A stretch of 32,000 nt of DNA from Clostridia bacterium (GCA_017934955.1 JAGBIO010000012.1:12691-44690), one strand, 5' to 3'. Shown: positions 7,924 to 28,204, counted from the stretch's first letter. A program made the numbers and translations. Notes: generated from the sequence alone by a model not told the origin.

Positions 7924-8487
7924 TTACTGCTTTTCAATTTGAATCTTAAGCTCATTGTTTTCAACTTTTGCGGAAATACGGACCGAACGGTCTAAGGAGT
8001 TTTTTATTTTTAAATCTTCTGCACCGTAAGATACGGTTGCATCTTTTCCTTCTTCAATATAAGGGACGTCTCGACTATGTTCGTGTCGTTCGATAATTTC
8101 TAAGTTTGCGGCGAGTGCTGCGTTATACAAAGTAGAGCTGATTTGGCAGATTCCGCCGCCGAGTCCTTTTTCTTTATTGCCATGTCCGTCGAAAATAATG
8201 GCTTTCTCATAACCTTTTTCACTGGTACGGCGCCCGATTCGGTCGTTAAAGGAAAACGTTTCGCCCGGCTTAATAATGGCGCCGTTTAGGCTGGATACTC
8301 CTAATTCGATATTGTTGAAGCGTTCCGGAGTTTTGTCGGTAATTTTTGTGGAAAAAGTGCCGATAACGGTTGCTTTTGAAAAGTCGGTATCATTTATCGT
8401 GTAGTTAATGTTTTGCGGTTGGTTTTGATTGTTTTGACATGCCGTTAGGCATAGTGTTAAAAACAATAAAGTTAAAATTTTTCTCAT
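7924..8487 (-). CDS. VanW-domain lipoprotein
   Basis: The signal peptide has lipobox LTAC (MRKILTLLFLTLCLTAC). The VanW-like core reads GETFSFNDRIGRRTSEKGYEKA...GGGICQISSTLYNAALAANLEIIERHEHS. RBS AGGAGG. Confidence 0.8.
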   Translation of the reverse strand: MRKILTLLFLTLCLTACQNNQNQPQNINYTINDTDFSKATVIGTFSTKITDKTPERFNNIELGVSSLNGAIIKPGETFSFNDRIGRRTSEKGYEKAIIFDGHGNKEKGLGGGICQISSTLYNAALAANLEIIERHEHSRDVPYIEEGKDATVSYGAEDLKIKNSLDRSVRISAKVENNELKIQIEKQ

Positions 8488-8514
8488 AAAATCCTCCTAA
8501 AATGCGGTTGAACA

Positions 8515-8704
8515 GTTACAGGTCAAACTCAAATTTATAGAGAAGGCACAAACACTGTAGGGACAGCATTTATGCTGTCCAAAGAAAAGGCAAAAAGCAG
8601 GACACAATAAATTGTGTCCCTACAATGATTGTGCCATTCTTGTAGGGGACGGCGTCCTCGACGTCCCGATATATTTGTAAAGAAATTTAAGTCCGAACTG
8701 TAAT
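8515..8704. mobile_element. MITE-like element D with a chimeric doublet (GC-type plus CA-variant) and a nested GC-rich hairpin
   Basis: - Left end GTTACAGGTCAAAC at 8515.
- Hairpins at 8557-8580 (GC type) and 8600-8623 (CA variant).
- GTAGGGGACGGCGTCCTCGACGTCCC at 8642-8667.
- Degenerate right end AAGTCCGAACTGTAAT ending about 8704. Confidence 0.75.
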
Positions 8705-8854
8705 GTTGATAATGTTTACTTAAAATTTAAGCTTGCATTTTTTTTATTTTTATAATAAAATCGAGCGGTATTTAGTCATATTTTTTGAATAAAGTGAATA
8801 AAACATACATAGAAAGAAATGGAGAGACAGTTAAGAAAAAAACGGAGAAAAAAT

Positions 8855-9673
8855 ATGGAACAAACAGTTTCGCGGTATCGCGTGCAAAGTCCGTATCGGA
8901 CACGTGTTGCTAATAAAGAACAAAAGGAAAGAATTTTAAAATATTGGGAAAAATTTGTTTTCCAAACGATTGTTAGTGCTGCTGTTTTGGCAACAGTGAT
9001 GTGTTGTAAGAATATTGAGATGGTTGTAAATTCTTCGCTTTGGGAGAATGCGGTGAAAATTGCGCAAACGGATTATACGGTAGAAGATATTAAAACACAG
9101 GTGAATAAAGGCTTAGAGTTTGTTGGAATTATGAAGAGTGCAGAGCCGGTTTTGACGGAAGAAATATCGACAGAGCCGGAAGTGAATTTGCAGGCAGCAG
9201 AGGAATCTAAAGTTGAAGAACCGAAGGAAGAAGCAGATCCTACCGAGAATATGACGCAGGAAGAGAAAGATGTTTATATGATTTTAAAATCGACTTCCGT
9301 ATTGCGTCCGGTAAATGGGGAAGTAACTTCGGAATATGGGGAAAGAGTGGATCCTATTACGAAAACGAGTAGCGTACATACCGGAGTGGACTTTTTAGCG
9401 GCGATCGGAACGCAGGTGAAGTCTGCCATTTCCGGAACGGTGGTGGAAGTTCAATATGGAAATAAGTCTTTCGGAAATTTTGTAAGAGTGAAAAATGCGG
9501 ATATTGTGACAACTTATGCGCATTGTTCACAGTTAAAGGTAAAAGAGGGGGATACGGTAAAGCAAGGGGATATTATTGCTTTATCCGGAAACACCGGAAA
9601 GTCCAGCGGACCTCATTTACACTTTGAAGTCACAAAAGCAGGAAGATTAGTGGATCCGATGAAATTGGTTTAA
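8855..9673 (+). CDS. M23 (LytM-type) metallopeptidase with N-terminal TM anchor; SpoIVFA-like genomic position
   Basis: Intact M23 motifs HTGVDF, SGNTGKSSGPHLHFEV and a TM helix. ATG 8855 follows GGAG by 7 nt, whereas the track start at 8819 has a poor RBS. It lies directly upstream of an M50 protease gene, as in spoIVFA-spoIVFB. Confidence 0.8.
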   Translation: MEQTVSRYRVQSPYRTRVANKEQKERILKYWEKFVFQTIVSAAVLATVMCCKNIEMVVNSSLWENAVKIAQTDYTVEDIKTQVNKGLEFVGIMKSAEPVLTEEISTEPEVNLQAAEESKVEEPKEEADPTENMTQEEKDVYMILKSTSVLRPVNGEVTSEYGERVDPITKTSSVHTGVDFLAAIGTQVKSAISGTVVEVQYGNKSFGNFVRVKNADIVTTYAHCSQLKVKEGDTVKQGDIIALSGNTGKSSGPHLHFEVTKAGRLVDPMKLV

Positions 9674-9689
9674 ATTTCGGAAGGGGACA

Positions 9690-10118
9690 ATGAAAATGAT
9701 TTTTCGAGTAAAGCATATCTATGTTACGGTAAGTCCCTTGTTTTTTGCAGTAGCGATCTGGGCGCTTTTGGCGGATAAAGCGGTTCCGTTTGGTCTATGT
9801 TTGATGGCGCTGTCTTTACATGAAATGGGACATATCGTAATGATATATTTGTTGCAGGAAAAAATTGCGATTTTTCGAATTATTCCGTTTGGCTTTTCCT
9901 GTCGATTGAAAAATCAGAGTAAGATTGTTCCTGAAAAGATGATAAAAATATTGTTTGCAGGTCCTGTCGTTAATTTTTTAACGGCGGGCCTGTTTTTTTT
10001 AGGGACAAAAGAGTTTGCGATGATGAATCTTTTATTGGGAATGTTTAATCTTTTGCCAATTGGCGAGTTGGATGGCGGGCGAATCTTTCAGATTGTTGAA
10101 ACGAAACGAGGAAAGTGA
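9690..10118 (+). CDS. Short M50 family site-2 protease-like membrane metalloprotease (SpoIVFB-like core, no C-terminal domain)
   Basis: HEMGH (HExxH) sits in a TM helix and NLLPIGELDGGR (NxxPxxxLDG) near the C-terminus. The protein is only 142 aa. The stop at 10116-10118 lies 7 intervening nt before a MITE-like element. Confidence 0.7.
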   Translation: MKMIFRVKHIYVTVSPLFFAVAIWALLADKAVPFGLCLMALSLHEMGHIVMIYLLQEKIAIFRIIPFGFSCRLKNQSKIVPEKMIKILFAGPVVNFLTAGLFFLGTKEFAMMNLLLGMFNLLPIGELDGGRIFQIVETKRGK

Positions 10119-10125
10119 CGAGAAC

Positions 10126-10280
10126 GTTACAGGTCAGACCATATTTCTCTACAATGATGGTACAATCATCGTAGGGACAGCATTCATGCTGTCCTGCTTT
10201 CTGCCTTTCCTGTGGACAGCATAAATGCTGTCCCTACACTAGATTGTGGCATTTTTATAAATTTAAGTCTGACCTGTAAC
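10126..10280. mobile_element. MITE-like element E (155 bp), best-preserved copy, inverted relative to D, G and H
   Basis: Perfect 14-bp terminal inverted repeats GTTACAGGTCAGAC (10126-10139) and GTCTGACCTGTAAC (10267-10280). The internal doublet is at 10171-10194 and 10214-10237. Confidence 0.8.
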
Positions 10281-10355
10281 AATAACAATATTTTCCTTGG
10301 AAAATATCTGGTCAAGTGTGAAAAATTATGCTAAAATAGCTTATGGTGATATAGA

Positions 10356-11357
10356 ATGAAAGAGATTGTTTGTCTTGCGATTGAGAGTAGTTGCGATGAG
10401 ACAGCTGCGGCGGTTGTGAGAGATGGAAGAATTGTAGAATCGAATGTGATTGTTTCGCAGATTGATATTCATAAAAAATACGGTGGCGTTGTCCCGGAAA
10501 TTGCATCGAGACAACATACCGAAAGCATTAATTTAGTAGTGGAAGAGGCATTAAAACAGGCAAACCGGACTTTTGACGATATCGATATCATCGGTGTAAC
10601 TGCCGGTCCGGGATTAATCGGTGCTTTACTGGTAGGTGTGTCAGCTGCGAAGGGACTTGCTTATGCACTAAAGAAGCCGTTGGTACCGGTGCATCATATT
10701 AAAGGGCATATTTTTGCAAATTTTATTGAGGATAAGAGCTTGGAACCGCCGTTTCTTTGCATGGTGGTATCCGGCGGACATACGCATTTAATTAAAGTAA
10801 AAAGCTATTCTGAGTTTGAAATTTTGGGAAAGACAATGGATGATGCGATTGGAGAGGCTTTTGACAAGGTGGCAAGAACGGTTGGCTTAGGTTATCCCGG
10901 AGGTCCGTTGGTAGATCAAGCAGCGCAGGAGGGACAAGATGTTTGCCATTTTCCTCGACCGGTATTTGAAAATTTAAATTTCAGCTTTAGCGGAATTAAA
11001 ACAGCGGTCATTAATTATGTCCATAAAACTCCGGAATTTAATATTAACGATGTTTGCAGAAGCTTTGAGGAAGCAGTAACGGATGTTGTAATCACCAATA
11101 TAAAAAGAGGAATGAAACAAGCCGGTATGAATAAGATTGCATTAGCGGGAGGAGTAGCGGCAAACCGGATGTTAAGAGAAAAATTGAAGAATTTTTGTGA
11201 AAAAAACGGATATCAATTTTACTATCCGGCGCCGGTTTTGTGTACCGATAATGCAGCGATGATTGGCTGCGCGGCATATTACGATTATTTGGATGGAAAA
11301 ACAGCGGATTTATCGCTAAATGCAACAGCGAATTTGAGCATTGAGAAGGATTTATAA
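10356..11357 (+). CDS. tsaD: tRNA N6-adenosine threonylcarbamoyltransferase TsaD
   Basis: LAIESSCDETAAAV, GGVVPEIASRQH, GPGLIGALLVG, VPVHHIKGH and SGGHT form a canonical Kae1/TsaD signature set over 333 aa. Confidence 0.95.
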   Translation: MKEIVCLAIESSCDETAAAVVRDGRIVESNVIVSQIDIHKKYGGVVPEIASRQHTESINLVVEEALKQANRTFDDIDIIGVTAGPGLIGALLVGVSAAKGLAYALKKPLVPVHHIKGHIFANFIEDKSLEPPFLCMVVSGGHTHLIKVKSYSEFEILGKTMDDAIGEAFDKVARTVGLGYPGGPLVDQAAQEGQDVCHFPRPVFENLNFSFSGIKTAVINYVHKTPEFNINDVCRSFEEAVTDVVITNIKRGMKQAGMNKIALAGGVAANRMLREKLKNFCEKNGYQFYYPAPVLCTDNAAMIGCAAYYDYLDGKTADLSLNATANLSIEKDL

Positions 11358-11372
11358 GGGTTTGTGTAAAAT

Positions 11373-11492
11373 GGACAGCATGAATGCTGTCCGTACAAAG
11401 GAAAGAGATACGATCAACATAGGGACAGCATGAATGCTGTCCGTACAGAGGGAAGCGGTACGATCAATGTAGGGACAGCATTTATGCTGTCC
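11373..11492. repeat. Tandem REP array F (3 hairpins, 50-bp period)
   Basis: Hairpins lie at 11373-11396, 11419-11446 and 11469-11492. The inter-hairpin segments AAAGGAAAGAGATACGATCAACA and AGAGGGAAGCGGTACGATCAATG are related to each other. Confidence 0.9.
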
Positions 11493-11553
11493 GGTGATAG
11501 GCAGAATGTAAATCGAGATGGCTGGTAAAAACACCTGTTTTGGAGGAATGAAT

Positions 11554-13692
11554 ATGGCAAAATGGGATTTTGAAAAGAGTGAAAAGAGAATGAATAAAGA
11601 TATGAAAAAGCGAAATAAAGCGGCGACGAAGAGACAAAAGCCGATGGGATGTGCGATTGTTTGGTCATTCTTATTAATCGGATTGTTTGCCGGATTGGGA
11701 GTGGCAGTGGCGATTATTGTGGGAATTTTGACTGATTCCCCGACAATTAATATTGAAGATTATCAGATTAAAAATATTTCTACCGTTTTCTATGACAGAG
11801 ACGGAAAAGAAACAGATACGGCGCATGGGGGCGAAAACAGAACAATTGAGTATTTGGATAAGATTCCGAAATATTTGCAGGATGCGTTTATCTCGATTGA
11901 AGACGAACGGTTTTATGAGCATAACGGTGTCGATCTTCAGAGAACGGCAGGTGCGATTTGGGGCTTTATTCGAACCTTTGGAAAGGGAACCTACGGTGGC
12001 AGTACCATTACCCAACAGCTTGTAAAGAACATGACGCAGGATAAGGCTGATGAAGGATTGGAAGGCGTTCTTCGAAAAGTGCGTGAGTGGTGGCGTGCTA
12101 CGATGATTGAACGAGAACTTTCAAAGGATCAGATTTTGGAATTATATCTAAATACGGTTTATTTCGGTAATTCGACTTATGGTGTCAAGGAAGCAGCAAA
12201 TCTGTATTTTTCGAAGGAAACGTCGGATTTGACTTTAGCAGAGTCAGCGTTACTTGCCGGGGTACCGAATCGACCGGTAAAATACGATCCGTTTACGAAT
12301 TTAGAGAATGCGAAGGCAAGACAGAAAGTTATTTTAGGGAAGATGAAGGAGCTTGGAAAGATTACGGAAGCGGAATACCAAGCCGCTTTGGAAGAAGAAA
12401 TTGTGATTAAGCGAGGGTTAAACTCTACCGGTTCCTCTCATTCATGGTTTATTGATGCGGTGATTGAAGACGTAATCAAGGATTTGCAAGAGAAAAAAGG
12501 AATGACGAAAGTAAGTGCGTCGAATTTAATTTATGGTGGCGGTTTGAAAATTTATACCACCATGGATTCTAAGGTGCAGGCTGCAATGGATCAGGTGTTT
12601 GTTACAGAGGATGCGACGATGTTTAAGGCGTTTGCGAATAAAGAAGAACAACCGCAAGCGGCAATGGTGGTAGAAGATTATAAGACCGGTCATATTTTAG
12701 GAATTGTAGGCGGTCGAGGCGAAAAAACATCTAAACGTGAGTTTAACAGAACGACGCAAGCCTATCGTCAGCCGGGTTCGACGATAAAGCCGTTAGCAAT
12801 TTACGGACCGGCGATAGAGGATAAAATAATTACGGCGGCGACGATTATATCGGATACCCCGCTTACGATTGAGATCCCGGGAAGTAAACCGTGGTCTCCG
12901 ACCAATTGGTATGGTAGTTATTATGGAAATGTTACGGTTCGATATGCGATTGAGCAGTCGATGAATGTTCCTGCTGCTCGCGTGTTGCAGATGATAGGAT
13001 TAAATAGAGCTTATCAAGCATTAGAGGAGGAAGGAATTACGACTCTTCAGAAAGAAGATTTAAATTATGCGCCGCTTTCTTTGGGTGGCTTAAATAAGGG
13101 CGTTACCGTTCGTGAATGGACCGGAGCCTATGGAATGATTGCAAACGGTGGTATTTATAATCAGCCGATTACTTACACAAAAGTTGAAGATGCGAACGGA
13201 ACGATTATTTTACAGAATAAGAGGAAGGAAAAAAGAGTATTTAGTTCCGGAACGGCATATGTGTTAACGGATATCATGAAGGGTGTTATAACAAAAGGGA
13301 CAGCACGTTCGGCGCGATTAGAAAACAGTGTAGCTGCCGGAAAGACCGGCTCGACAACCGGTACCAAGGATAAATGGTTTGTAGGGTATACCCCGTATTA
13401 TGTAGCGGCAGTGTGGTTTGGATATGATGAACCGAAAGTAATGGATGTTGGTGGAGAAGTTGGTAAACAGATTTGGAAGAAGGTTATGGATATTCTTCAT
13501 AAAGATTTACCGAGTATTGATTTTTCGATTCCGGAGGATGTGCAGCAAATCGGTATTTGCAGTGTTTCCGGTAAGAGAACGACTTCTTATTGCAGCGGTT
13601 ACGGGAAGAATGAATGGTTTGTGAAGGGAAGCGAGCCGACCGGTTATTGTACCTACCATTCGGCGCCGTCCTATTATCCGGAAGGAATATAG
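11554..13692 (+). CDS. Class A penicillin-binding protein (bifunctional glycosyltransferase GT51 / transpeptidase, PBP1A-type)
   Basis: TM anchor plus GT51 motifs (AFISIEDERFYEHNGVD, GGSTITQQLVKN, RKVREW), transpeptidase STIKP, and KTGST. ATG 11554 lies 7 nt after GGAGGA. Confidence 0.9.
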   Translation: MAKWDFEKSEKRMNKDMKKRNKAATKRQKPMGCAIVWSFLLIGLFAGLGVAVAIIVGILTDSPTINIEDYQIKNISTVFYDRDGKETDTAHGGENRTIEYLDKIPKYLQDAFISIEDERFYEHNGVDLQRTAGAIWGFIRTFGKGTYGGSTITQQLVKNMTQDKADEGLEGVLRKVREWWRATMIERELSKDQILELYLNTVYFGNSTYGVKEAANLYFSKETSDLTLAESALLAGVPNRPVKYDPFTNLENAKARQKVILGKMKELGKITEAEYQAALEEEIVIKRGLNSTGSSHSWFIDAVIEDVIKDLQEKKGMTKVSASNLIYGGGLKIYTTMDSKVQAAMDQVFVTEDATMFKAFANKEEQPQAAMVVEDYKTGHILGIVGGRGEKTSKREFNRTTQAYRQPGSTIKPLAIYGPAIEDKIITAATIISDTPLTIEIPGSKPWSPTNWYGSYYGNVTVRYAIEQSMNVPAARVLQMIGLNRAYQALEEEGITTLQKEDLNYAPLSLGGLNKGVTVREWTGAYGMIANGGIYNQPITYTKVEDANGTIILQNKRKEKRVFSSGTAYVLTDIMKGVITKGTARSARLENSVAAGKTGSTTGTKDKWFVGYTPYYVAAVWFGYDEPKVMDVGGEVGKQIWKKVMDILHKDLPSIDFSIPEDVQQIGICSVSGKRTTSYCSGYGKNEWFVKGSEPTGYCTYHSAPSYYPEGI

Positions 13693-13702
13693 GAGGTAAG
13701 CG

Positions 13703-13870
13703 ATGGAACACGAAGTTGGTCAGCTTATAAAATTAAAAAAACAGCATCCTTGCGGTTCTTTTGAGTGGGAGATTTTAAGAGTCGGCGTAGATTATCGGAT
13801 TCAATGTAAAAAATGTGGGCATATTTTATTGATTCCTCGGATTAAAATTTTAAAAATGATAAAAGGGTAA
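13703..13870 (+). CDS. DUF951 family small protein (55 aa)
   Basis: Not in the ORF track because it is under 60 aa. The translation is MEHEVGQLIKLKKQHPCGSFEWEILRVGVDYRIQCKKCGHILLIPRIKILKMIKG. It has the HPCGS..W.I.R.G.D.R..C..CGH motif I recognise as DUF951. RBS AGGAGG overlaps the PBP stop, and a terminator follows. Confidence 0.75.
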   Translation: MEHEVGQLIKLKKQHPCGSFEWEILRVGVDYRIQCKKCGHILLIPRIKILKMIKG

Positions 13871-13873
13871 AAA

Positions 13874-13917
13874 GGAAAACAGTCTGTCAGAACTTCAACA
13901 GACTGTTTTCCTTTTTT
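13874..13917. terminator. Bidirectional intrinsic terminator between the DUF951 gene and the convergent Cys-rich peptide gene
   Basis: Perfect 14-bp stem GGAAAACAGTCTGT / ACAGACTGTTTTCC, with an A-run upstream and T6 downstream. Confidence 0.85.
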
Positions 13918-13924
13918 GGCTCAC

Positions 13925-14044
13925 TTAGCATCCGCAACCATTATCATTGCATCCGCCGAATCCGTTACCACAGCAACAGCAAATGATGATAAGGATAAGT
14001 ATAATCCAAAGACAGCCGTTGTTTCCACATCCGCAGTTATTCAT
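13925..14044 (-). CDS. Tiny Cys/Gly/Asn-rich membrane peptide (39 aa), possibly a YjcZ-like sporulation peptide
   Basis: Not in the ORF track. The translation is MNNCGCGNNGCLWIILILIIICCCCGNGFGGCNDNGCGC. A strong RBS GGGGGTGAG lies 6 nt upstream, and it ends at the bidirectional terminator 13874-13917. The hydrophobic core flanked by CGCG-type ends resembles tiny Firmicute sporulation peptides. Confidence 0.55.
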   Translation of the reverse strand: MNNCGCGNNGCLWIILILIIICCCCGNGFGGCNDNGCGC

Positions 14045-14165
14045 TAAGTCTCACCCCCTGTGTCGTTCGATAGTATATAGTATGATAGTTTGAAAAGATG
14101 TGTTACAAAATTTACAAGGAAAAATAAAAAGGACAGCATTACGGAAGCATGATGACACAAAAAGA

Positions 14166-14194
14166 TTGATTTCATTGACATAATATGGTATAAT
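14166..14194 (+). promoter_or_regulatory. SigmaA-type promoter with extended -10 for the riboswitch leader and giant-protein operon
   Basis: TTGATT (14166-14171), a 17-nt spacer, then TGgTATAAT (14186-14194). This is the only strong + strand promoter I can see upstream of 14632. Confidence 0.6.
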
Positions 14195-14236
14195 GATTTT
14201 ATAGAAATAATACGTTTTTGACGTAAGAAAAATTTT

Positions 14237-14390
14237 GTTACAATTCAGACTCAAATTTGTAGAGAAAGCACAAACCCTGTAGGGACAGCATTTATGCTGT
14301 CCACAGAAAAGGCAGAAAGCAAGACAGCATAAATGCTGTCCCTACAATGGTCGCACCATCGTTGTAGGACGATACAGTCTGACCTGTAAC
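14237..14390. mobile_element. MITE-like element G (154 bp) inside the riboswitch leader
   Basis: The ends are GTTACAATTCAGAC (14237-14250) and GTCTGACCTGTAAC (14377-14390). Hairpins lie at 14279-14302 and 14322-14345, the second with one G-to-A change. AAAATTTT flanks both ends. Confidence 0.8.
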
Positions 14391-14411
14391 AAAATTTTTA
14401 ATTAATAAAAA

Positions 14412-14530
14412 TAAGGAAAAAGGCAAATTTTACGAAAGTAAGAGACGCAAAGTCACGAGACTAAGGTATGTCGGTGGGTACAATATTCAAACGCCGGATA
14501 CTATGTTGGTCGGACCGCCGTAAAAAGGGA
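14412..14530 (+). promoter_or_regulatory. Candidate c-di-GMP-I (GEMM) riboswitch aptamer
   Basis: Elements seen in order:
- GGCAAA at 14422-14427.
- Helix UUUAC/GUAAG capped by a GAAA tetraloop at 14429-14442.
- GACGCAAAG at 14444-14452.
- Second helix GUC/GAC (14452-14454 with 14513-14515) and GAC/GUC (14459-14461 with 14509-14511).
- These enclose a UAAG (14462-14465) / UAUG (14502-14505) tetraloop-receptor-like loop.
- Distal GUAU/AUAC pairing.
- A 3' CGGACCGCC that can close on GGC.
The match is to my recalled consensus, not a covariance-model score. Confidence 0.6.
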
Positions 14531-14533
14531 AGT

Positions 14534-14577
14534 CAGAGTGTTCATCGGCGATTCGATTTACACTCTGTTTTATTTTT
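14534..14577 (+). terminator. Intrinsic terminator (putative riboswitch expression platform)
   Basis: CAGAGTGT (14534-14541) pairs with ACACTCTG (14560-14567), with extra ATCG/CGAT pairing in the loop. It is followed by TTTTATTTTT and lies 55 nt upstream of the operon start codon. Confidence 0.75.
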
Positions 14578-14631
14578 AAATAAGAAATAACCGATAAAAA
14601 GACCGATGGAGTTTATTAGGAGAGGGTGGCT

Positions 14632-16578
14632 ATGAGAAACTATAAGTTTTGTTTAGGGATTTTAATAGTAATGATAACGATTGTTGGATTTCGAGTTTTT
14701 TTCATTTCAGAATGTAAATCAGAGGATATTCGAGATGCTGGAGAACTTATGTACCCTTCAAAACCAAAGCCAAAGCCGGTATATAATAAAAAGCCTGTGC
14801 ACTACCATAACAACAGTCAACATTGCAGTGCAACCCACTGTAATCATTCATGGTGCAGTTGCGGATCGGGAGCAAGTCATAGCTGCGGCGGCGGTTGCAC
14901 ATGGGGTTCATGGCAATTGTATAACGGAACACAACATGCGCAGTTATGCACAAGAGGGTGTGGCAGAACGAATGGTTTGCATAATGCTGCATGGAAATCT
15001 TGGTCAAGTAATCATACCATCGAATGTAACAAATGTACTCTTGTCGGAAGTCATACAGCAAACTGGGCGACAAACTATAGTATCAATAGTTCTACAGGAA
15101 ATCATGAACAAAAATGTACTAATAAATATATTACAACGTTAGCCGGTAAATCCGTTAATATTAATTCGCAAAAAAGTTGTACAGCGACGCGAGATGTACA
15201 TTCCCCGGAATTTACGGCGCCATATTATAAAATGAATGCTGCCGGAGAAAGTAACGGAAGTGCCCAGCATAGACGTGACTGTCAACATAGTGGGTGTAAC
15301 CTATCTGAGACGCATAATCCGACGTGGGGAGAATGGACAAGTATCAGCGACGATCAGCATAGACGAAGCTGTATATACGGATCGGGATGCGATTTAACAC
15401 AGACATTGCAACACAATAAGGTTTATACACCGATTGAAGGAGATATTCACAATCATATTGTTACTTGCGATAGCGGAGATACGGATCATCCATGTCCGTA
15501 TTATGCAATAAAAGAACATGTGGATAGCAATCCTCGAGATGGAAAATGTGATTTATGTAAAGATGGTAATGATAACTTTAAATTGTATCAAATAGAATAT
15601 GACCCGGAACCTACCGAATTAACCAATAAAGACGTTACGGTAACGGTTACGATGTACGATGTAGGAAATAAGACGGATATAACAAAAAGTCATATTTATA
15701 CGAAAAACAATTTAAATGAACTGGAAGAAGAACGTTATGAATTCGTTTTTGACGGAATTGATACGAGTAGAGATCAAATTAGACCAATTGTAGATCATAT
15801 CAATAAAAGTGTCAGCGGAAGAATTAAATATGAACCGAATAAGCCGACTTCAGAACCGGTAACGATTACATTTTTACCGGATTACGAAGAAGAAACTTAC
15901 GGAGATTACCAAAGGGCGGAATATGGAAACAGAAGTAAGCAAATTTACGGAAGAATTTTAATTGACGGAGAGCCGATTCCGGATTGGCAACTGGCGGAAA
16001 CTGCTTCACGAGTTCCGACAATCACGCATACATTTACAGAAAACGGAAGTTGTGAAATTGAGTTATATGATACGGTAGGAAACGGAAACCGTGATAGTGA
16101 GGAAGGAAAACAAAGTGTAAAAATACCGGTTATGGTAGATTGGATTGTTTCGGGTCAAGCAACGGTAGCGACAACCAGTAACGTATTGGAAAACGGAACT
16201 GTCTTTACCGATCTCTTGATTAATGCAGATAAAGAATGGAATATAACGGATGCACAACAGCAAATTGCAGTAAAAATCTATCAAATTACGGCAGAAGGAA
16301 ATATTGTAGCAACAGAAAAGAGTGCAAGAATCAGCAAATTGGAAGTAAAAGATTATACAGAAAACAGAATCACCGAGACGCCGATTGGAAGAGGATTATA
16401 CTATATCAAAGTCGGAATCGGCGGTCCGGGTATCTTTACAAGTGATCCGGAACAAGAAAGTACACGTTATATCGTGGAAATCAGTACGATAACTCCAAAT
16501 CAAGGAGAGCCGGGTTTAACGATTTTAGGAAAGAACCGAATAGAAGTGACGGTTAATAAATTAAATGATTTAACATAG
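14632..16578 (+). CDS. Secreted or membrane-anchored Cys/His-repeat protein (648 aa): N-terminal hydrophobic anchor, PKPKP linker, about 6 Cys2His2-like modules, then beta-rich Ig-like C-terminal half
   Basis: ATG 14632 follows the AGGAGAGGGTG RBS. The N-terminus carries the TM/signal segment CLGILIVMITIVGFRVFFI. The region around 14800-15576 encodes repeated W-x2-W...H-x3-C-x(2-5)-C...H units. The stop lies 12 nt before the next gene. No family name was recognised. Confidence 0.85.
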   Translation: MRNYKFCLGILIVMITIVGFRVFFISECKSEDIRDAGELMYPSKPKPKPVYNKKPVHYHNNSQHCSATHCNHSWCSCGSGASHSCGGGCTWGSWQLYNGTQHAQLCTRGCGRTNGLHNAAWKSWSSNHTIECNKCTLVGSHTANWATNYSINSSTGNHEQKCTNKYITTLAGKSVNINSQKSCTATRDVHSPEFTAPYYKMNAAGESNGSAQHRRDCQHSGCNLSETHNPTWGEWTSISDDQHRRSCIYGSGCDLTQTLQHNKVYTPIEGDIHNHIVTCDSGDTDHPCPYYAIKEHVDSNPRDGKCDLCKDGNDNFKLYQIEYDPEPTELTNKDVTVTVTMYDVGNKTDITKSHIYTKNNLNELEEERYEFVFDGIDTSRDQIRPIVDHINKSVSGRIKYEPNKPTSEPVTITFLPDYEEETYGDYQRAEYGNRSKQIYGRILIDGEPIPDWQLAETASRVPTITHTFTENGSCEIELYDTVGNGNRDSEEGKQSVKIPVMVDWIVSGQATVATTSNVLENGTVFTDLLINADKEWNITDAQQQIAVKIYQITAEGNIVATEKSARISKLEVKDYTENRITETPIGRGLYYIKVGIGGPGIFTSDPEQESTRYIVEISTITPNQGEPGLTILGKNRIEVTVNKLNDLT

Positions 16579-16590
16579 TTGGAGGGTAAG

Positions 16591-19500
16591 ATGAAAAAGA
16601 ATATTTCGATCGTATTATTATTTTTCATAATTCTATTTGGTTTGCGAACCTTTTCTTTGGGGACGGCATTTACGTGTTGCGACAATCCGGATCAACAATA
16701 CGGACACGATAATTGCACCAATTGGGTTTGCTTAAATTGTGGTGCCCATTGGCCGAACGCATGTCAAGATGTTCCTGTGATTACGAAGGCAGAAGTTACG
16801 AAATATACAACCGGAACCATCAGTGTTACAGTAGCCGGACAAAATGCGCATTCTGTTAGGGCAGCTGTTTGGTCGGAAGAAGGCGGACAAGATGATATTG
16901 CTTGGTATGAAATAAAGAATGATACGGATATCGGAATTTTTGAAAAAACGGTAAGTATTGATTTAACGCCACATATGGCGAACGGAGAACAATCTTTTTA
17001 TGCAAAGATTTATTTTTCAAAGACGAGTTATGCTTCTACGAGAGAAGTCTTTTCGGAACATACGATTTTATGGAAAACAGATACTACTCCGCCCACGTCT
17101 CCTACTTTGATTGGAGGCGCATCTCGTTATTATAAGTTTTCCGATCTTGAAATTGAAACGGGTTCTAACAAAAGCTATTTTTTAGTAACGGCAAATCCGG
17201 GAACCGATGATGTTGATGGAAGGGCGCAAGCGTATTTATGGGTTTCTACCGACGGAGGAAGCAATTGGAATTACTTGGACTATCAGCAGGTAAAGATGAC
17301 ATGGAATGCGGATGATAATTATTATGAGTATCCTGTGTATATCGATAATTCAGAAACAACCTATACCTGCCTGGTTCGTAGTATTGATACCATGGGAAAT
17401 TGGGATGTGTCTGCAACAGGAGAGTATAAGGTACAGGATGTTATCATAGATAATACGATTCCGACGATTGAAGCGCCGACAGAAAGTCAGATTTTTTATA
17501 CGCCGGAAGCCAATTATACGGTAAGTGTGGACGCGGAGGATAAAGGCGGAGCCGGTATAGAAAGCGTAAAGTGGCGTGTTTATGATCCAAACGGAAACGA
17601 TGTAGAATTAGCGGATTCTACCGGTGTATCGGGAGATACCTATTCTTTAACCTATGAATTCAAAAGTGAGGGAGCTTATACCCTTGAACCGCGTGTTATT
17701 GACAGAGCCAATAATATCAGTTATTTGAGCAGCAGCGGAATTAGCATTCAGGTAGTATATGATGTTACAGCACCTTATGGTTCTGCAGATACAGATGCCT
17801 ATACAACGAACGGAGTGTTTACAATCGATGCGAAAGCCGGAGATGGAACATCCGGAATAAAAGAAATAAAATATGTAATAGCGGAGGAAGACGGGAGTAA
17901 TCCGGAAGAAGGATTAATTGTGCAAAATGCTACTTCCGGTACGGTAAATGTAGATTTAAGAAGCCGTGGAGAAGGAATTTACAAGGTAGAAGTGTATGCT
18001 TACGATAATGCCGGAAATTCTGCGGTAACCGCGGAAAATAAAGTGGTTTATTTATCGGATATTGCGGCAACCTTTGAATGGGAGGCATTGGGCGGAGAAG
18101 AAGTGTTCTTTGATGCGTTATTTAATTCGGATAATGTGGTAAGTTGGGGTGACGGAACGATAACACAGTGTATCGCCGGTCAGAATAAAGTCACTCATAC
18201 ATATAGTGTGTCCGATACTTATACGGTACAAATATTTAAGAAAGGTATTGTGACGTTAAATTTAGCCAATAAAGGGATTACTTCTTTAGAGGTGAGCGGC
18301 GCAACTGCTTTAGAGAAATTATACTGTTACGATAACGATATAAAAACATTAGACGTAAGTAAAAATACCGCGTTAAAGGAGCTTTTAGCATACGGTAACG
18401 AAAATATTGGTAACATCAACTTAGGAAACGTAGCTATTGAAAAATTATTTGTGCATCCGAATCAATCGGTAAGCAATCAAAATTCCGCTACGAAAAAGAA
18501 TTATATTGAAGTGCTGGAAAGTAAGGGAAATAAATATGGAAGAATTATTTATTCCAACAATGTATTTAAAATAACACCAAACGAAGATGGCATTTTAGAG
18601 AGAATTTTGGTAAATGGGGTTAGTATCGGAACCGATCATACGGACTATATCTTTAATAACAGTGATAATGAGGTTTGGCTAAAGGCGGAATTCAGCCATT
18701 CCGATACGCTTCGCTCTTTTACGGCGAATGCACCGGTATTGGCAGAGGGAATAATGAAACCGGTAAAATTTGTGAATAATGTTTGGAAAGAAACAACTGA
18801 AGATGATGTAGAATGGTATAATTATGAGAACGGTAAATGGGCAAATATGATGTTAGAGGATGGAAGTCTGTTTGTTTGGATTCCTCGTTATACCTATAAG
18901 GTTGATTATGATAATAATACGATTGATATTAAGTGGAGCCAGGGAAAAACAGATGATACATCCGGCGGATATATGCGTCATCCTGCCTTTTACATGGGAG
19001 AATATTTGGGTGGAAATCCGAATGCCAATTCTTCTTTTGCGGGAAGAACCGGAAATTTAAATGAATTAAACGGTTTCTGGATGGCAAAGTATATGGCGAG
19101 TGAAAGTTCCGGAACGATACAATCCAAGCCGGATAAAACTCCGTTAGTAACGGATATCAATGAAGCCTTTGAAAAATCAATCGCCTTAAAGGAAAAAAGG
19201 ATTAATCAAACGGGTGTATTTACTCATTTAACCAAAAACAGCGAATGGGGTGCGGTTGCGTATTTGTCAATGGCAAAAGGTTTTACATCACGTGAGAATA
19301 CTACCGAAAAAACAGGAAATGACAAATCGGTTCTTCAAAGCAGTACAAAGAATATATACGGAGTATTTGATTTAAATGGACCGATAGGGGAATATGTTGC
19401 GGGATTTATTCCGAATGCCGTTTCACAAAACAATGCACCAAGTTTAAATATTTCCTATTATAAAGAGTATGTAGATCGATTCTCAAATTCGAAACAATAT

Positions 19501-22380
19501 TACGGTCTTTCCTTAACAGAATTAGCAGATGTTACAGGAAATAATCTTCTTCCAAATGAAAATAAACCGTTTTTTGTAAGAGGTAGCGGGGATATCGGGG
19601 TATATGGCTATAAAAATGCGACCGGGATGGAAGATGAATTCGGTTTTAGACCGACGATAGCGGTGGATAATGCTTATATGGCAGGAGAACTTGCTTTATT
19701 TGAGACAGAAGCTTCCGTAATTGCCGGAGATTATTTAATTATTACGGTCGATTTTTCCGTAAAGAAGCCATGGAAGTTTGACTTGGCAGAAGGTGAATCG
19801 CTGAAAGAAAAAATATTTGACTTTATCGACTTAAAATTTGTTCAAACCGGTAACTCCGAATTAGGAAGCAGTGTCGAACTTTACCAGACGACCTTAAATC
19901 CGGAACTTTTGGAGATGTCGGGGAGCGAGACCGGAATTATTGATTTGGAGAATGGTTTTAACAATACTTTTAATGCCGACGAAAAGTATTTCTTAAAGAT
20001 TAGAGTGGGCGGTTACGCAGATGATGATAAAGAGTATCCTATCTTTATTAATATTAAGAATATGACATCGAAGATTATTGTCGAAGAAATGAGACTGATC
20101 AATAGAGAAAATGGAAATGCTTTAAAATTAGAGGGCTATCCGTATGATAAAATACGTTTATCTGTCGTAAATAGAAAAGGCGAATACAGTGGCTTGGAGT
20201 CGGTTGGACTAATTTCAACACCGGTAAAAACAGAATATGATTTAGGGGAACCGATTGATGTTACCGGCGGTGTTTTACAGCTAAACTATAATGGCGGATT
20301 GAGTAGCGGTACGGTTGATTTAACAGCATCCAATATTGTAGATTACGATACGCTAACCGAAACTTCCGGATATAAAGAACAAATTCCGATGATTTATGAC
20401 GGAAAAGAAGTTTTACAGGGAGACGGGTATAAAACCTTTAATATTACAGTAAGCGATAAACGCAAATATAAAGTAGAAATACAGAAAAGTGTGACACCGG
20501 ATAAAGGAAAGCCTTTCGGTACGGTAGATGGTGCCGGCAGTTACGCATCCGGAGATGCCGTGACGGTAAGGGCTTTTGGAATGAATGGATATAAATTTAA
20601 GAATTGGACGTCCGGAGATATGAATATAACAGATGGTGAACAGAATGAGTTAAAGTTTAATCAACCGGAATCTAATGTGAATGTTACGGCAAATTTTGTG
20701 GGTGTTCTTCGTTTAGAGGAAGCAATACCGCCAACAAAAGAATTTGAGAAGAACGATCGGTTTACTTTAGGACCGATGCGGTTGGTTGCTGTATATGCAG
20801 ATGGAACGACAGAATATGTTACAGTGACAACGTCGGGACTTACGACGAATATCGGAATCGGGGAAATCTTGGACCTCGATGAAAGTACAGATGTTATCAT
20901 TGAGTATGGCGGAGCAGAATTTGAATATACAATTGATATTGTAAAACGGAAGTATCCGATAACTCTGGCGATTAACAATGCAAATGCAGGTGTGATTCGA
21001 GATGCGGAAAACACGATAAAGGTACCGTATAACGGCAGAAGCAGTATAGAGGAGTACATTTCTTATGATACCATTCTTTCCTATGTTGCCGAACCAAAAC
21101 CGGGATATGAATTTGCAGGTTGGGATATTTCTATGGACGGAATTCTTTCGGAAGCTGATAAGACCTCTTCTGCAATCAGCTTTACGATGCCGGAGAGTAA
21201 TATAACGCTAACTGCTAATTTTGCTTTATTGGAGTATACGTTAAAGTATATTTCTACCGAAGGCGGTGTTATTTTAGGAGAAACCGAACAAGTTTTGAAA
21301 AAAGGTTATGATGGCTCGGTAGTAGAAGCGGTTGCAAATGACGGGTATTATTTCTATGGTTGGGACGATGGTTATACTCAGCCGGTTAGACAAGATACGA
21401 ATGTGGAAGAAGATAAAACGTATACGGCAATATTCTACGAAGGGTATGAAGTTTCTTTCTATGGATATGATGATATCAAGATCGGAGAGACCCAAAGAGT
21501 AAATGCCGGGGAAAGTGCAATTCCGCCGGATGCGTCGCAAGTACCGGTAAAGGAAGGATATCAATTTAACGGCACATGGAGTGAAGATTATACAAATGTA
21601 CAAAGAAATTTAACAATTTATGCAAACTATGATATAGAGGGCTATGAAGTGACTGTGACGTATGACAGCGATGCCGGCGAAGCAACGGGCGCAGGAATTT
21701 ATACGTTAGATACACTTGTGGAACTTTCGGTTACAAAAATAAATACGAATTACACATTCCAAGGCTGGAAGTTGCTAAAGGACGATGGAACCGATGTGAC
21801 AACAGAACTATTCCCGAAGAGTAATTCCGAGCCAACAATTTACTTTACTATGCCTGCCTATAACGTAAGAGCGGAAGCTGTTTTCGTTCCAACGGTAGTG
21901 GTAGGAATACAAGTAAACGGGGTTATTGTGTATAGTAACTTTGTTGTAGGAAGCGAATTAAATATTAAAGCAGAAAGCAACGAGAAATATGACTTTAATA
22001 AATGGTTGGAGGATAGCGGATTATTTACGGAGTCCCAAAGCATCATGCGAGAAATTAGCGTTCAAGTTCCGTCTTCGATGACAATTATAAATGCGGATTA
22101 TACTGCAACTACGCCAATGTATTATAAAGTTATGATACAAGCGGAAGGAAACGGTACTGTGACAACGCAAATCGGAGAGAATACCATGACCGGTTCCGGG
22201 ATGCAGGAAGCTTTGATGGGTTCTGAAATGGAGGTATCCATTACTCCGGACGAAGGATATCAAGTGACCGAATTAAAACTAAACGGTTATGCTTTTGAGA
22301 ATCCGGAAACGATTCCTTCCATATTTGTAAATTATGTGAATATGGATATTCTTATCGAAGCAACTTTCTCAGCAATTTAA
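16591..22380 (+). CDS. Giant mosaic surface protein/adhesin (1929 aa)
   Basis: Signal peptide MKKNISIVLLFFIILFGLRTFSLG. A 6-Cys segment follows. Recognised domains in order:
- A GBS Bsp-like repeat motif (AAVWSEEGGQDDIAWYE).
- Several Ig-like modules (DNTIPT..., SGIKEIKYV).
- A PKD-like segment (WGDGT...HTYSVSDTYTVQI).
- Leucine-rich repeats (ITSLEVSGATALEKLYCYDNDIKTLDVSKNTALKELLAYGN).
- An FGE-sulfatase/C-type-lectin-like region (FVWIPRY, HPAF, GFWMAKY, NSEWGAVAYL, YGVFDLNGPIGEYVAG, FGFRP).
- Big_3-like modules.
- At least 6 Listeria-Bacteroides (InlB B-type) repeats (GYKFKNW, GYEFAGW, GYYFYGW, GYQFNG, YTFQGW).
There is no LPXTG, SLH or choline-binding anchor. Confidence 0.9.
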   Translation: MKKNISIVLLFFIILFGLRTFSLGTAFTCCDNPDQQYGHDNCTNWVCLNCGAHWPNACQDVPVITKAEVTKYTTGTISVTVAGQNAHSVRAAVWSEEGGQDDIAWYEIKNDTDIGIFEKTVSIDLTPHMANGEQSFYAKIYFSKTSYASTREVFSEHTILWKTDTTPPTSPTLIGGASRYYKFSDLEIETGSNKSYFLVTANPGTDDVDGRAQAYLWVSTDGGSNWNYLDYQQVKMTWNADDNYYEYPVYIDNSETTYTCLVRSIDTMGNWDVSATGEYKVQDVIIDNTIPTIEAPTESQIFYTPEANYTVSVDAEDKGGAGIESVKWRVYDPNGNDVELADSTGVSGDTYSLTYEFKSEGAYTLEPRVIDRANNISYLSSSGISIQVVYDVTAPYGSADTDAYTTNGVFTIDAKAGDGTSGIKEIKYVIAEEDGSNPEEGLIVQNATSGTVNVDLRSRGEGIYKVEVYAYDNAGNSAVTAENKVVYLSDIAATFEWEALGGEEVFFDALFNSDNVVSWGDGTITQCIAGQNKVTHTYSVSDTYTVQIFKKGIVTLNLANKGITSLEVSGATALEKLYCYDNDIKTLDVSKNTALKELLAYGNENIGNINLGNVAIEKLFVHPNQSVSNQNSATKKNYIEVLESKGNKYGRIIYSNNVFKITPNEDGILERILVNGVSIGTDHTDYIFNNSDNEVWLKAEFSHSDTLRSFTANAPVLAEGIMKPVKFVNNVWKETTEDDVEWYNYENGKWANMMLEDGSLFVWIPRYTYKVDYDNNTIDIKWSQGKTDDTSGGYMRHPAFYMGEYLGGNPNANSSFAGRTGNLNELNGFWMAKYMASESSGTIQSKPDKTPLVTDINEAFEKSIALKEKRINQTGVFTHLTKNSEWGAVAYLSMAKGFTSRENTTEKTGNDKSVLQSSTKNIYGVFDLNGPIGEYVAGFIPNAVSQNNAPSLNISYYKEYVDRFSNSKQYYGLSLTELADVTGNNLLPNENKPFFVRGSGDIGVYGYKNATGMEDEFGFRPTIAVDNAYMAGELALFETEASVIAGDYLIITVDFSVKKPWKFDLAEGESLKEKIFDFIDLKFVQTGNSELGSSVELYQTTLNPELLEMSGSETGIIDLENGFNNTFNADEKYFLKIRVGGYADDDKEYPIFINIKNMTSKIIVEEMRLINRENGNALKLEGYPYDKIRLSVVNRKGEYSGLESVGLISTPVKTEYDLGEPIDVTGGVLQLNYNGGLSSGTVDLTASNIVDYDTLTETSGYKEQIPMIYDGKEVLQGDGYKTFNITVSDKRKYKVEIQKSVTPDKGKPFGTVDGAGSYASGDAVTVRAFGMNGYKFKNWTSGDMNITDGEQNELKFNQPESNVNVTANFVGVLRLEEAIPPTKEFEKNDRFTLGPMRLVAVYADGTTEYVTVTTSGLTTNIGIGEILDLDESTDVIIEYGGAEFEYTIDIVKRKYPITLAINNANAGVIRDAENTIKVPYNGRSSIEEYISYDTILSYVAEPKPGYEFAGWDISMDGILSEADKTSSAISFTMPESNITLTANFALLEYTLKYISTEGGVILGETEQVLKKGYDGSVVEAVANDGYYFYGWDDGYTQPVRQDTNVEEDKTYTAIFYEGYEVSFYGYDDIKIGETQRVNAGESAIPPDASQVPVKEGYQFNGTWSEDYTNVQRNLTIYANYDIEGYEVTVTYDSDAGEATGAGIYTLDTLVELSVTKINTNYTFQGWKLLKDDGTDVTTELFPKSNSEPTIYFTMPAYNVRAEAVFVPTVVVGIQVNGVIVYSNFVVGSELNIKAESNEKYDFNKWLEDSGLFTESQSIMREISVQVPSSMTIINADYTATTPMYYKVMIQAEGNGTVTTQIGENTMTGSGMQEALMGSEMEVSITPDEGYQVTELKLNGYAFENPETIPSIFVNYVNMDILIEATFSAI

Positions 22381-28083: not shown

Positions 28084-28204
28084 TACGGACAGCATGAATG
28101 CTGTCCGTACGGAAAAGAGCAGAGAGTAGGTGTAGGGACAGCATGAATGCTGTCCGTACGGAAAAGAGCAGGGAGTAGGTGTAGGGACAGCATTTATGCT
28201 ATCC
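28084..28204. repeat. Tandem REP array J (3 hairpins, 49-bp period)
   Basis: Hairpins lie at 28084-28110, 28132-28159 and 28181-28204. The spacers GGAAAAGAGCAGAGAGTAGGT and GGAAAAGAGCAGGGAGTAGGT differ at one position. Confidence 0.9.

Follow-up and report, generated by a model that had tools for sequence, protein, structure and literature searches.

The DNA examined here (the window) is a 32,000-nucleotide (nt) stretch from a Clostridia bacterium (GCA_017934955.1, JAGBIO010000012.1:12691-44690), and our subject is gene A, which encodes a secreted protein with tandem cysteine- and histidine-rich repeats. Gene A follows a cyclic diguanylate (c-di-GMP) riboswitch and is directly followed by gene B, a second secreted surface protein gene. 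Its product has 650 amino acids (aa) if translated from GTG at 14626 or 648 aa from ATG at 14632, and the 648-aa product is identical to the NCBI entry ‘MAG: hypothetical protein J6M02_03445 [Clostridia bacterium]’ (MAG, metagenome-assembled genome). The parts of gene A, in window coordinates, are as follows.

14626–16578, + strand: gene A, secreted Cys/His-repeat protein, from the list of open reading frames (ORFs)
14632–14709, + strand: N-terminal hydrophobic signal or anchor segment MRNYKFCLGILIVMITIVGFRVFFIS, read from the sequence
14752–14799, + strand: Pro/Lys-rich linker YPSKPKPKPVYNKKPV, aa 43–58, read from the sequence
14800–14898, + strand: N-terminal Cys/His module, aa 59–91, C67-x3-H71-C72-x4-C77-x-C79-G...H85-x-C87-GGG-C91
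14899–14982, + strand: unit 1, aa 92–119, TWGSW...H104-x3-C108-x3-C112...H119; matched by the unit hidden Markov model (HMM) at aa 92–115 with 16.8 bits; candidate ligands conserved
14983–15054, + strand: unit 2, aa 120–143, AWKSW...H130-x3-C134-x2-C137...H143; unit HMM at aa 125–138; candidate ligands invariant
15055–15201, + strand: unit 3, aa 144–192, NWATNY...H160-x3-C164-x20-C185...H192; unit HMM at aa 150–165; C164, C185 and H192 invariant
15202–15315, + strand: unit 4, aa 193–230, FTAPYY...H215-x3-C219-x4-C224...H230; unit HMM at aa 209–230; candidate ligands invariant
15316–15414, + strand: unit 5, aa 231–263, TWGEW...H245-x3-C249-x5-C255...H263; unit HMM at aa 233–263 with 27.2 bits
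15415–15519, + strand: unit 6, divergent, aa 264–298, YTPIEG...H277-x3-C281-x8-C290...H298; found by regular expression; candidate ligands invariant; unit HMM not significant
15520–15564, + strand: terminal cap, aa 299–313, VDSNPRDGK-C308-DL-C311-KD; C308 and C311 invariant in 11 family members
15571–16575, + strand: C-terminal β-rich domain of ~335 aa, ending in a conserved ...GKNRIEVTVNKLNDLT; conserved in 10 family members

A preliminary description made from the sequence had singled out window positions 14800–15576, which correspond to gene A aa 59–317, as an array of about six Cys2His2-like modules, and its reading of the translation was exact: all six quoted units are present at the positions listed above, together with the linker PKPKP and, after it, the HCSATHCNHSWCSCGSGASHSCGGGC stretch towards the N-terminus. 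The stretch of aa 59–313 starts with the N-terminal Cys/His module, continues through six repeat units and closes with the cap, a CxxC knuckle that has no His of its own; it accounts for nearly all Cys (22 of 23) and His (21 of 24) of the whole protein. Cys and His make up 7.5% and 7.9% of the repeat region, against 0.3% and 0.9% of the C-terminal half. The motif H-x3-C-x(2-5)-C-x(5-9)-H occurs four times in aa 59–317 compared with 0.14 expected, and none of 20,000 composition-preserving shuffles reached four. The shared pattern first proposed, with two to five residues between the cysteines, thus holds in four of the six units and fails in units 3 and 6, which match only with longer Cys–Cys spacings (20 and 8 residues); the knuckle loop of unit 3 carries a 20-residue insertion.

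Conservation follows the motif. In an alignment of 11 family members (26–64% identity over the C-terminal domain), the residues H104, C108, C112 and H119 of unit 1, H130, C134, C137 and H143 of unit 2, H160, C164, C185 and H192 of unit 3, H215, C219, C224 and H230 of unit 4, H245, C249, C255 and H263 of unit 5, H277, C281, C290 and H298 of unit 6, and C308 and C311 of the cap are invariant or nearly so, whereas the non-motif His 59, 66, 74, 221, 275 and 288 vary. Because the pattern exceeds chance and the motif residues are fixed while the other His vary, we regard the gene A repeat as real. In the N-terminal module C67, H71, C72, C77 and C87 are invariant, and position 91 is Cys in five members and His in five. 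Close gene A homologues are only three (~55% identity) in a collection of 5.8 billion proteins; the distant family members (P0005-7, P0011, P0013, P0022 and P0029) came from an exhaustive profile search. The N-terminal module type, C-x3-HC-x4-5-C-x1-2-C(G)-...-H-x-C-GG-x-[CH], is found by regular expression in 18 copies in nine family members (1–3 per protein), once in gene A and two or three times in P0007, P0011, P0013, P0022 and P0029, which have further C/H-rich N-terminal extensions.

The gene A units are members of a real, widespread and unnamed mini-domain repeat of clostridial extracellular proteins. With the gene A region as query, an exhaustive HMMER search returned 30 representatives at E ≤ 1e-3, including unrelated large proteins with regular head-to-tail arrays, and an HMM built from 101 units of such unrelated array proteins, with the gene A family excluded, matches five of the six gene A units. 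Family membership follows from this unit HMM, since a profile built outside the gene A family recognizes the gene A units; the most canonical of them, unit 5, is matched at E 1.6e-10 (Z=1, one-sequence search space). The 29-aa consensus is HTYGDWTSNDDTTHKRTCTVCGYTETAAH, in which the final His of one unit is the opening His of the next. Across 239 units, position 14 is His in 231, position 18 Cys in 239 and position 21 Cys in 238. Each of the six gene A units has these three residues (H14, C18 and C21), the boundary His and, ahead of them, an aromatic pair. Arrays reach ~27 copies and occur in more than 100 metagenomic surface proteins. A search with one array found 80 further proteins, 73 without a source name, four hypothetical proteins of Clostridia MAGs and one fibronectin type III domain protein of a Candidatus Limnocylindria MAG.

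The location of the repeat on a secreted protein, as first described, is borne out by the N-terminal hydrophobic signal segment (read by eye) and by the partner domains of the arrays, all extracellular: Cohesin, Dockerin, BspA-type leucine-rich repeat (LRR_5), Flg_new, LysM, GDSL, fn3 and YkuD. Three gene A orthologues (P0002, P0003 and P0005) have apparent cleavable AxA-type signal peptides, their N-termini having been read by eye with no predictor. The statement that the repeat has no named family also held up. Pfam and NCBIfam scans of gene A and seven array proteins placed no model over the arrays, and PDB sequence searches with full-length gene A and with the unit profile gave no significant match. 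Searches of GTDB species genomes with the N-terminal region and the full-length alignment as queries found no gene A relatives, and a homologue search with a two-unit alignment against a word index, an index ill-suited to short repeats, gave 13 candidates and no match. Searches of the literature on HxxxCxxC extracellular repeats and on zinc-ribbon or zinc-binding surface repeats of Firmicutes gave no account of this repeat. One cluster member of array protein P0010 is named ‘transpeptidase ErfK/SrfK/rubredoxin’.

In P0010, P0017, P0031, P0018, P0037 and other array proteins, canonical units take turns with a companion unit, ‘type B’, of the form H-x-W-x-x-G...P-T-[C/E]-x3-G-x5-C-x2-CG...H, which no Pfam model covers. 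Type B units without the Cys at position 14 are followed by an HxH boundary.

For fold prediction, AlphaFold2 was given gene A units 4 and 5 (aa 192–266) with 55 two-unit rows cut from arrays; the rows are overlapping windows from ~20 proteins and are not independent. The predicted structure had a mean predicted local distance difference test score (pLDDT) of 80 and a predicted template modelling score of 0.58, with a pLDDT peak of 87–92 across the inter-unit junction and block means of 81–92 across unit 5. Each unit is predicted to form three short strands, in unit 5 at aa 238–241, 244–249 (QHRRSC) and 258–262, followed by H263, with H245 and C249 on the same strand, four residues apart. In a full-length model of gene A (4-sequence alignment, overall pLDDT 39), which was left out of the fold search, the C-terminal domain showed β-strands at pLDDT 50–70. 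A profile of this domain found nothing significant in the PDB or Pfam (best, BspA V domain at E 0.1 and R28 at E 0.23). Its extreme C-terminus (domain aa 316–650) carries GKNR[IL]xVxVxxLNDLT, strongly conserved in 10 of 10 family members, and this tail could be an assembly or sorting signal.

Several known metal-binding modules share features with the repeat. Rubredoxins and zinc ribbons have the same C-x2-C-G turn at a β-hairpin tip, but with two knuckles (four Cys) per domain rather than one knuckle and two strand-end His; we rejected this identity on the single knuckle per unit and on the best PDB profile match, to rubredoxin, which reached only E 0.11 and covered the knuckle only. Pfam Rubredoxin matches in P0010 were below threshold and likewise limited to the knuckle. 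Classical C2H2 arrays (PF00096) are also tandem ~30-residue units with two Cys and two His each, but theirs follow C-x2-4-C-x12-H-x3-5-H in a β-β-α fold, whereas the order here is H...H-x3-C-x2-5-C in a fold predicted to be all-β; C2H2 fingers are, moreover, intracellular nucleic-acid binders with self-contained sites, whereas the units here are extracellular. A classical C2H2 finger was rejected because no Pfam match appeared at E ≤ 1, the ligand order is H, C, C, H and the prediction is all-β. The motif of the zinc-binding anti-sigma (ZAS) domain (zf-HC2, PF13490), H-x3-C-x2-C, has the same local spacing as canonical units; the ZAS domain is helical and cytoplasmic. It too was set aside, with no Pfam match and the segment predicted as a β-strand plus knuckle. 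A multihaem cytochrome c was discarded because neither gene A nor gene B contains CxxCH.

Indirect evidence from the sequences favours a bound metal, most simply zinc, over disulfides. Cys and His exchange at candidate ligand positions, with C91 replaced by His in half of the family (5:5) and with Cys in place of a boundary His or H14 in companion units; type B units combine three Cys with one His; and the Gly after the second Cys is conserved. The unit profile gave only sub-threshold matches in the PDB, and all were CxxCG metal knuckles (rubredoxin, Nop10 and L37Ae). It is the Cys–His exchange, the 3 Cys + 1 His units, the CxxCG-type knuckle and the absence of CxxCH that favour a metal. The reducing medium of the gut and rumen would make extracellular disulfides unlikely in the anaerobes that live there.

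We propose, with a probability of about 0.55, that the metal sites span unit junctions, each combining the two His of one unit with the Cys knuckle of the next. Each unit would be a three-stranded antiparallel meander, with W-x2-W on strand 1, H-x-R-x-C on strand 2, the CxxC(G) knuckle, and a strand 3 leading to the boundary His. H14, at the start of strand 2, and H29, at the end of strand 3, would then lie at one end of the sheet, and the knuckle and the N-terminal boundary His at the other. Head-to-tail stacking would set H14 and H29 at the ‘top’ of unit n beside C18 and C21 at the ‘bottom’ of unit n+1, with one metal, probably Zn(II), at each junction. In gene A this would give seven sites: C87/C91+C108/C112; H104/H119+C134/C137; H130/H143+C164/C185; H160/H192+C219/C224; H215/H230+C249/C255; H245/H263+C281/C290; and H277/H298+C308/C311. 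One more site would lie inside the N-terminal module. Metal stapling of consecutive units may thereby form a semi-rigid rod, a stalk or spacer that presents the C-terminal ~335-aa β domain.

The strongest competitor is the grouping implied by the preliminary description, in which H14, C18, C21 and H29 of one unit hold one metal and the modules sit like beads on a string. Its stoichiometry of two Cys and two His per repeat is right and it has the appeal that four invariant residues fall within ~16–20 residues, but we consider the grouping itself probably wrong and the model unlikely. In the predicted fold H14 and C18 share a strand, four apart, and standard strand geometry puts H245 and C249 at ~13 Å, which we infer to be too far for a common zinc. 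Array ends point the same way. Among 69 non-redundant proteins, with a terminal unit defined as one with no further knuckle within 45 residues downstream, H14 is present in 11 of 37 array-terminal units against 118 of 146 internal ones (Fisher 7e-9), and H29 in 12 of 37 against 119 of 146 (Fisher 2e-8), where the tests take units as independent and many come from the same proteins. Terminal units retain the CxxC, and most of the 11 with H14 proved on inspection to be false ends with an oddly spaced next knuckle. In ~25 of the ~26 true ends both His are missing and the CxxC is kept. Sites within a unit would leave these terminal units with two ligands, whereas sites across junctions complete them.

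Bookkeeping within gene A bears on the same choice. The invariant C308-x2-C311, like the boundary His or HxH before first units, would be left orphan by sites within units and is explained only if sites span junctions; caps similar to this one end arrays in P0025, P0027, P0007, P0028 and P0030. Junction sites pair every conserved candidate ligand of gene A and leave no orphan, and they account for the Cys/His alternation at position 91, since C91 sits at a boundary position. The extra ligands ahead of first units (several array starts carry HxH, HxC or CxxH) are accounted for by junction sites alone. Boundaries are doubled (HxH or CxH) after 34 of 252 units that lack H14 and after 2 of 157 that have it (p 7e-6); P0017 has ‘...PTC...’ at position 14 and then a single boundary His, and the homologous P0031 has ‘...PTE...’ and then HTH.

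Human XPA supplied the only tight match of a Foldseek search against the PDB, over 33 columns at a root-mean-square deviation of 1.1 Å, probability 0.97 and 24% identity, with E-values of 0.8–0.9 that are not database-significant, as is normal for a 30-residue domain. The XPA segment concerned is presumably 241–273, an assignment made by sequence comparison: chain 8ebt_K closes with 33 residues that are XPA 241–273, and this segment aligns to the unit consensus without gaps at a BLOSUM62 local score of 63, reached by none of 2000 shuffles. The classical XPA zinc finger was discarded as the Foldseek target, its sequence score being no better than that of shuffles, and the unit profile found no XPA chain among PDB sequences at E ≤ 10. 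XPA 241–273 is the C-terminal antiparallel β-sheet that contacts TFIIH p8 (PMC11445577), and the XPA C-terminus has four putative zinc ligands, two His upstream and a CxxC knuckle (PMC10089173). These His lie upstream of the knuckle, not downstream as sites within one unit would have them, and H242-Q-H244 plus the knuckle matches the ligand set proposed for the first units of arrays (HxH plus knuckle). Both modules have ~30 residues and the common pattern H-x-Y-G...D...(R/K)-T-C-T-x-C-G...T. The XPA module differs in being eukaryotic, nuclear and single-copy, in serving protein–protein interaction and in having Tyr at the bacterial H14 position. The putative zinc module at the XPA C-terminus is best described as the closest structural analogue of the predicted repeat; homology between them is unproven, and convergence is possible.

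The setting of gene A bears on its role. It is presumably in one operon with gene B, under the riboswitch, and the elements concerned are these.

14412–14522, + strand: c-di-GMP-I riboswitch aptamer in the gene A leader (Rfam RF01051, 69.7 bits against a gathering threshold of 35)
14534–14577, + strand: terminator-like hairpin (stem 14534–14541/14560–14567) with a U-tract (14568–14577), from RNA folding
16579–22380, + strand: gene B, 1933-aa secreted surface protein, starting directly after the gene A stop (16578/16579)
16669–16770, + strand: 6-Cys/2-His segment near the N-terminus of gene B, FTCCDNPDQQYGHDNCTNWVCLNCGAHWPNACQD; the L001 and L005 orthologues share it, and the L003 homologue lacks it
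Aptamers in five other loci: L001 6675–6785; L002 4691–4801; L003 7782–7879; L004 3018–3115; L005 94–203

These homologous aptamers score 66–70 bits, and each of the five loci has one upstream of its gene A homologue. The hairpin and U-tract at 14534–14577 are a putative expression platform; a consensus terminator scan missed them because the loop is longer than 8 nt. The order of aptamer, gene A homologue and, 13 nt downstream, gene B homologue recurs in all five other loci, including the P0007 locus, where the gene A homologue is ~30% identical and the genomic neighbourhood different. Because the three parts recur in the same order in all six loci, the riboswitch, gene A and gene B are a conserved functional module. 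Both genes stand under a c-di-GMP-I riboswitch, so we think it most likely that they form a surface or adhesion system governed by this second messenger.

Gene B has Pfam matches to Flg_new_2 (3.6e-44), Flg_new, GBS_Bsp-like and Big_3_2, with a sub-threshold LRR_4 (E 0.006). The 6-Cys/2-His segment that opens it was described earlier as related to the gene A repeats. The segment exists, with its six Cys and two His conserved in an orthologue, but the relationship is not supported: the likeness to the gene A N-terminal module is by loose pattern only (C-x4-C-x2-CG-x-H-x4-C), the HMM of that module scores the segment at -4 bits, and the unit HMM has no match in gene B.

Known surface systems offer two comparisons. 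Clostridioides difficile uses c-di-GMP riboswitches to regulate flagella, pili and surface adhesins, and those of class I act as OFF switches there; the surface proteins under c-di-GMP riboswitches include CD2797, CD2831, CD3246 and PPEP-1, and the class I precedent CD2797 is a ‘calcium-binding adhesion protein’ (PMC11477304). The likeness lies in a c-di-GMP riboswitch in the leader of secreted or surface protein genes of Clostridia; the proteins themselves are unrelated, and the gene A/B system has no sortase signal. Fibrillar adhesins and periscope proteins have stalk repeats such as Rib, SHIRT, G5-E and Big (PMC9210967). Like the arrays here, adhesin stalks consist of small domains repeated in tandem, placed ahead of functional domains or between them in long surface proteins of Gram-positive bacteria, and the role proposed for them, to project a distal domain, is the one we propose for the arrays; the known stalk domains differ as 70–100-residue Ig-like folds without Cys from units of ~29 residues that depend on Cys and His. 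The G5-E repeats of Aap and SasG are known to use zinc for inter-molecular association and are not known to need it for folding of each repeat. By analogy with such stalks, the array is most likely a stiff spacer that presents the C-terminal domain.

Several observations weigh against junction-spanning sites and the rod role built on them. A few internal units carry Arg at position 14, and about half of the true array starts have one boundary ligand only. The loss of H14 offset by an extra C-terminal boundary His fits sites within units equally well, so this compensation agrees with both ligand groupings, and only the array ends, the geometry and the gene A bookkeeping discriminate. Neither the units in the Fisher tests nor the AlphaFold2 rows are independent. 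The XPA match lacks database significance, its segment was assigned from sequence, and the XPA C-terminus has itself not been proven to bind zinc (PMC10089173). Architecture and regulation are the grounds on which the stalk and adhesion role is inferred. Of the features of a fibrillar adhesin, gene A has the signal segment and the repeat array; its C-terminal domain has no recognizable relative, and no cell-wall anchor (LPXTG, SLH or choline-binding) was found in gene A or gene B.

Of the remaining explanations, a metal-free module stabilized by a C18–C21 disulfide loop, with His for packing, pH sensing or ligand contacts, ranks slightly below sites within units and, though likewise unlikely, is a rival to be taken seriously. 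Extracellular proteins commonly carry disulfides in many organisms, and the Cys are paired at short spacing (2–5 residues), but this account is at odds with the invariant His, the odd 3 Cys + 1 His companion units, the resemblance of CxxCG to metal knuckles and the Cys–His exchange both at the boundary and at position 14 of companion units. Less probable again is that the array is a functional metal-handling device, used to capture or store zinc or nickel outside the cell, or a redox or iron site, rather than a stalk. The ~40 Cys/His in 255 residues and the sub-threshold rubredoxin-knuckle matches would suit such a device, yet the fold is confidently predicted and the candidate ligand positions are fixed, CxxCH haem motifs are absent, as is any spacing of the Rieske or mitoNEET type, the operon has no transporter or metal regulator, and arrays are placed like linkers among cohesin, dockerin, LRR, LysM, SLH-like and transpeptidase domains. 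That the pattern arose by chance from the composition of a low-complexity region rich in Cys and His, as the loose fit of units 3 and 6 might suggest, is refuted by the shuffles, the invariance in 11 homologues, the independent HMM matches and the confident fold.

The remainder of the locus gave observations that stand apart from the repeat. A central region of gene B at ~18690–19600 (aa ~705–1000), starting ...WYNYENGKWANMMLEDGSLFVWIPRYTYK..., is conserved even in the L003 homologue (aa 25–981), to which gene B is 38% identical over 995 aa, and no Pfam family covers it. Upstream of the operon (window 7924–13871) lie cell-wall genes, with VanW, an M23 peptidase, an M50-like protein, TsaD, a class A penicillin-binding protein and a small DUF951 ORF; downstream are a glycogen phosphorylase and an A24 prepilin peptidase, and the order is syntenic with L001 (805–6197). 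At the P0007 locus the gene A homologue is placed after MurF/Ddl instead. A small ORF at ~13897–14047 (- strand), 39 aa, MNNCGCGNNGCLWIILILIIICCCCGNGFGGCNDNGCGC, is Cys/Gly-rich with a hydrophobic core, as read by eye, and has no NCBIfam match; a strong terminator-like hairpin at 13916–13869 (- strand) overlaps its 3' end.

A 24-nt palindrome resembling repetitive extragenic palindromic (REP) elements, GTAGGGACAGCATTTATGCTGTCC, has 24 sites in the 32 kb at ≤3 mismatches against 0 expected. The sites are apparently all intergenic, by comparison of coordinates with the ORF list, and are mostly inverted pairs ~40 nt apart; examples are as follows.

3490/3526, 5356/5399, 7789, 7894, 8557, 10171/10214, 11373–11492 and 14279/14322: REP-like sites
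25897/25940, 26943, 28087–28204 and 30375/30413: further REP-like sites

Nested inverted repeats occupy 14228–14399, between a promoter-like site (14166–14194) and the riboswitch, with outer arms 14228–14251/14376–14399 that are 92% complementary and inner arms 14278–14301/14323–14346 that are 100% complementary. The segment folds to -74.7 kcal/mol (z-score -11) and may be a REP-type insertion in the operon leader.

We see the repeat as a previously unnamed version of the metal-knuckle theme, deployed in tandem outside the cell. Small domains of this kind are familiar from the cell interior, whereas outside-facing tandem arrays on Gram-positive bacteria are undescribed in the libraries and literature searched. 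In uncultured Clostridia of the gut and rumen, many large surface proteins have hundreds of unannotated residues filled by this repeat, among them cellulosome-type proteins with cohesin or dockerin domains; naming and modelling it would close an annotation gap and add a stalk or spacer type for fibrillar-adhesin prediction. If the sites do span junctions, the arrays would be a simple natural design for metal-stapled protein rods. A bolder reading, which we consider less likely than not, is that the unit is a new class of extracellular junction-spanning zinc module, that whole arrays are zipped by metal into rods whose stiffness or length could respond to zinc availability or redox state outside the cell, and that the C-terminal TFIIH-binding element of XPA is the same module in single copy; if this were true, XPA would have another zinc site that has escaped detection until now and that the disease allele H244R affects. 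The XPA resemblance may offer a bacterial model for a putative zinc site relevant to human DNA-repair disease. For the Clostridia themselves, the module of riboswitch, gene A and gene B adds a conserved c-di-GMP-controlled surface system in uncultured members of the class.

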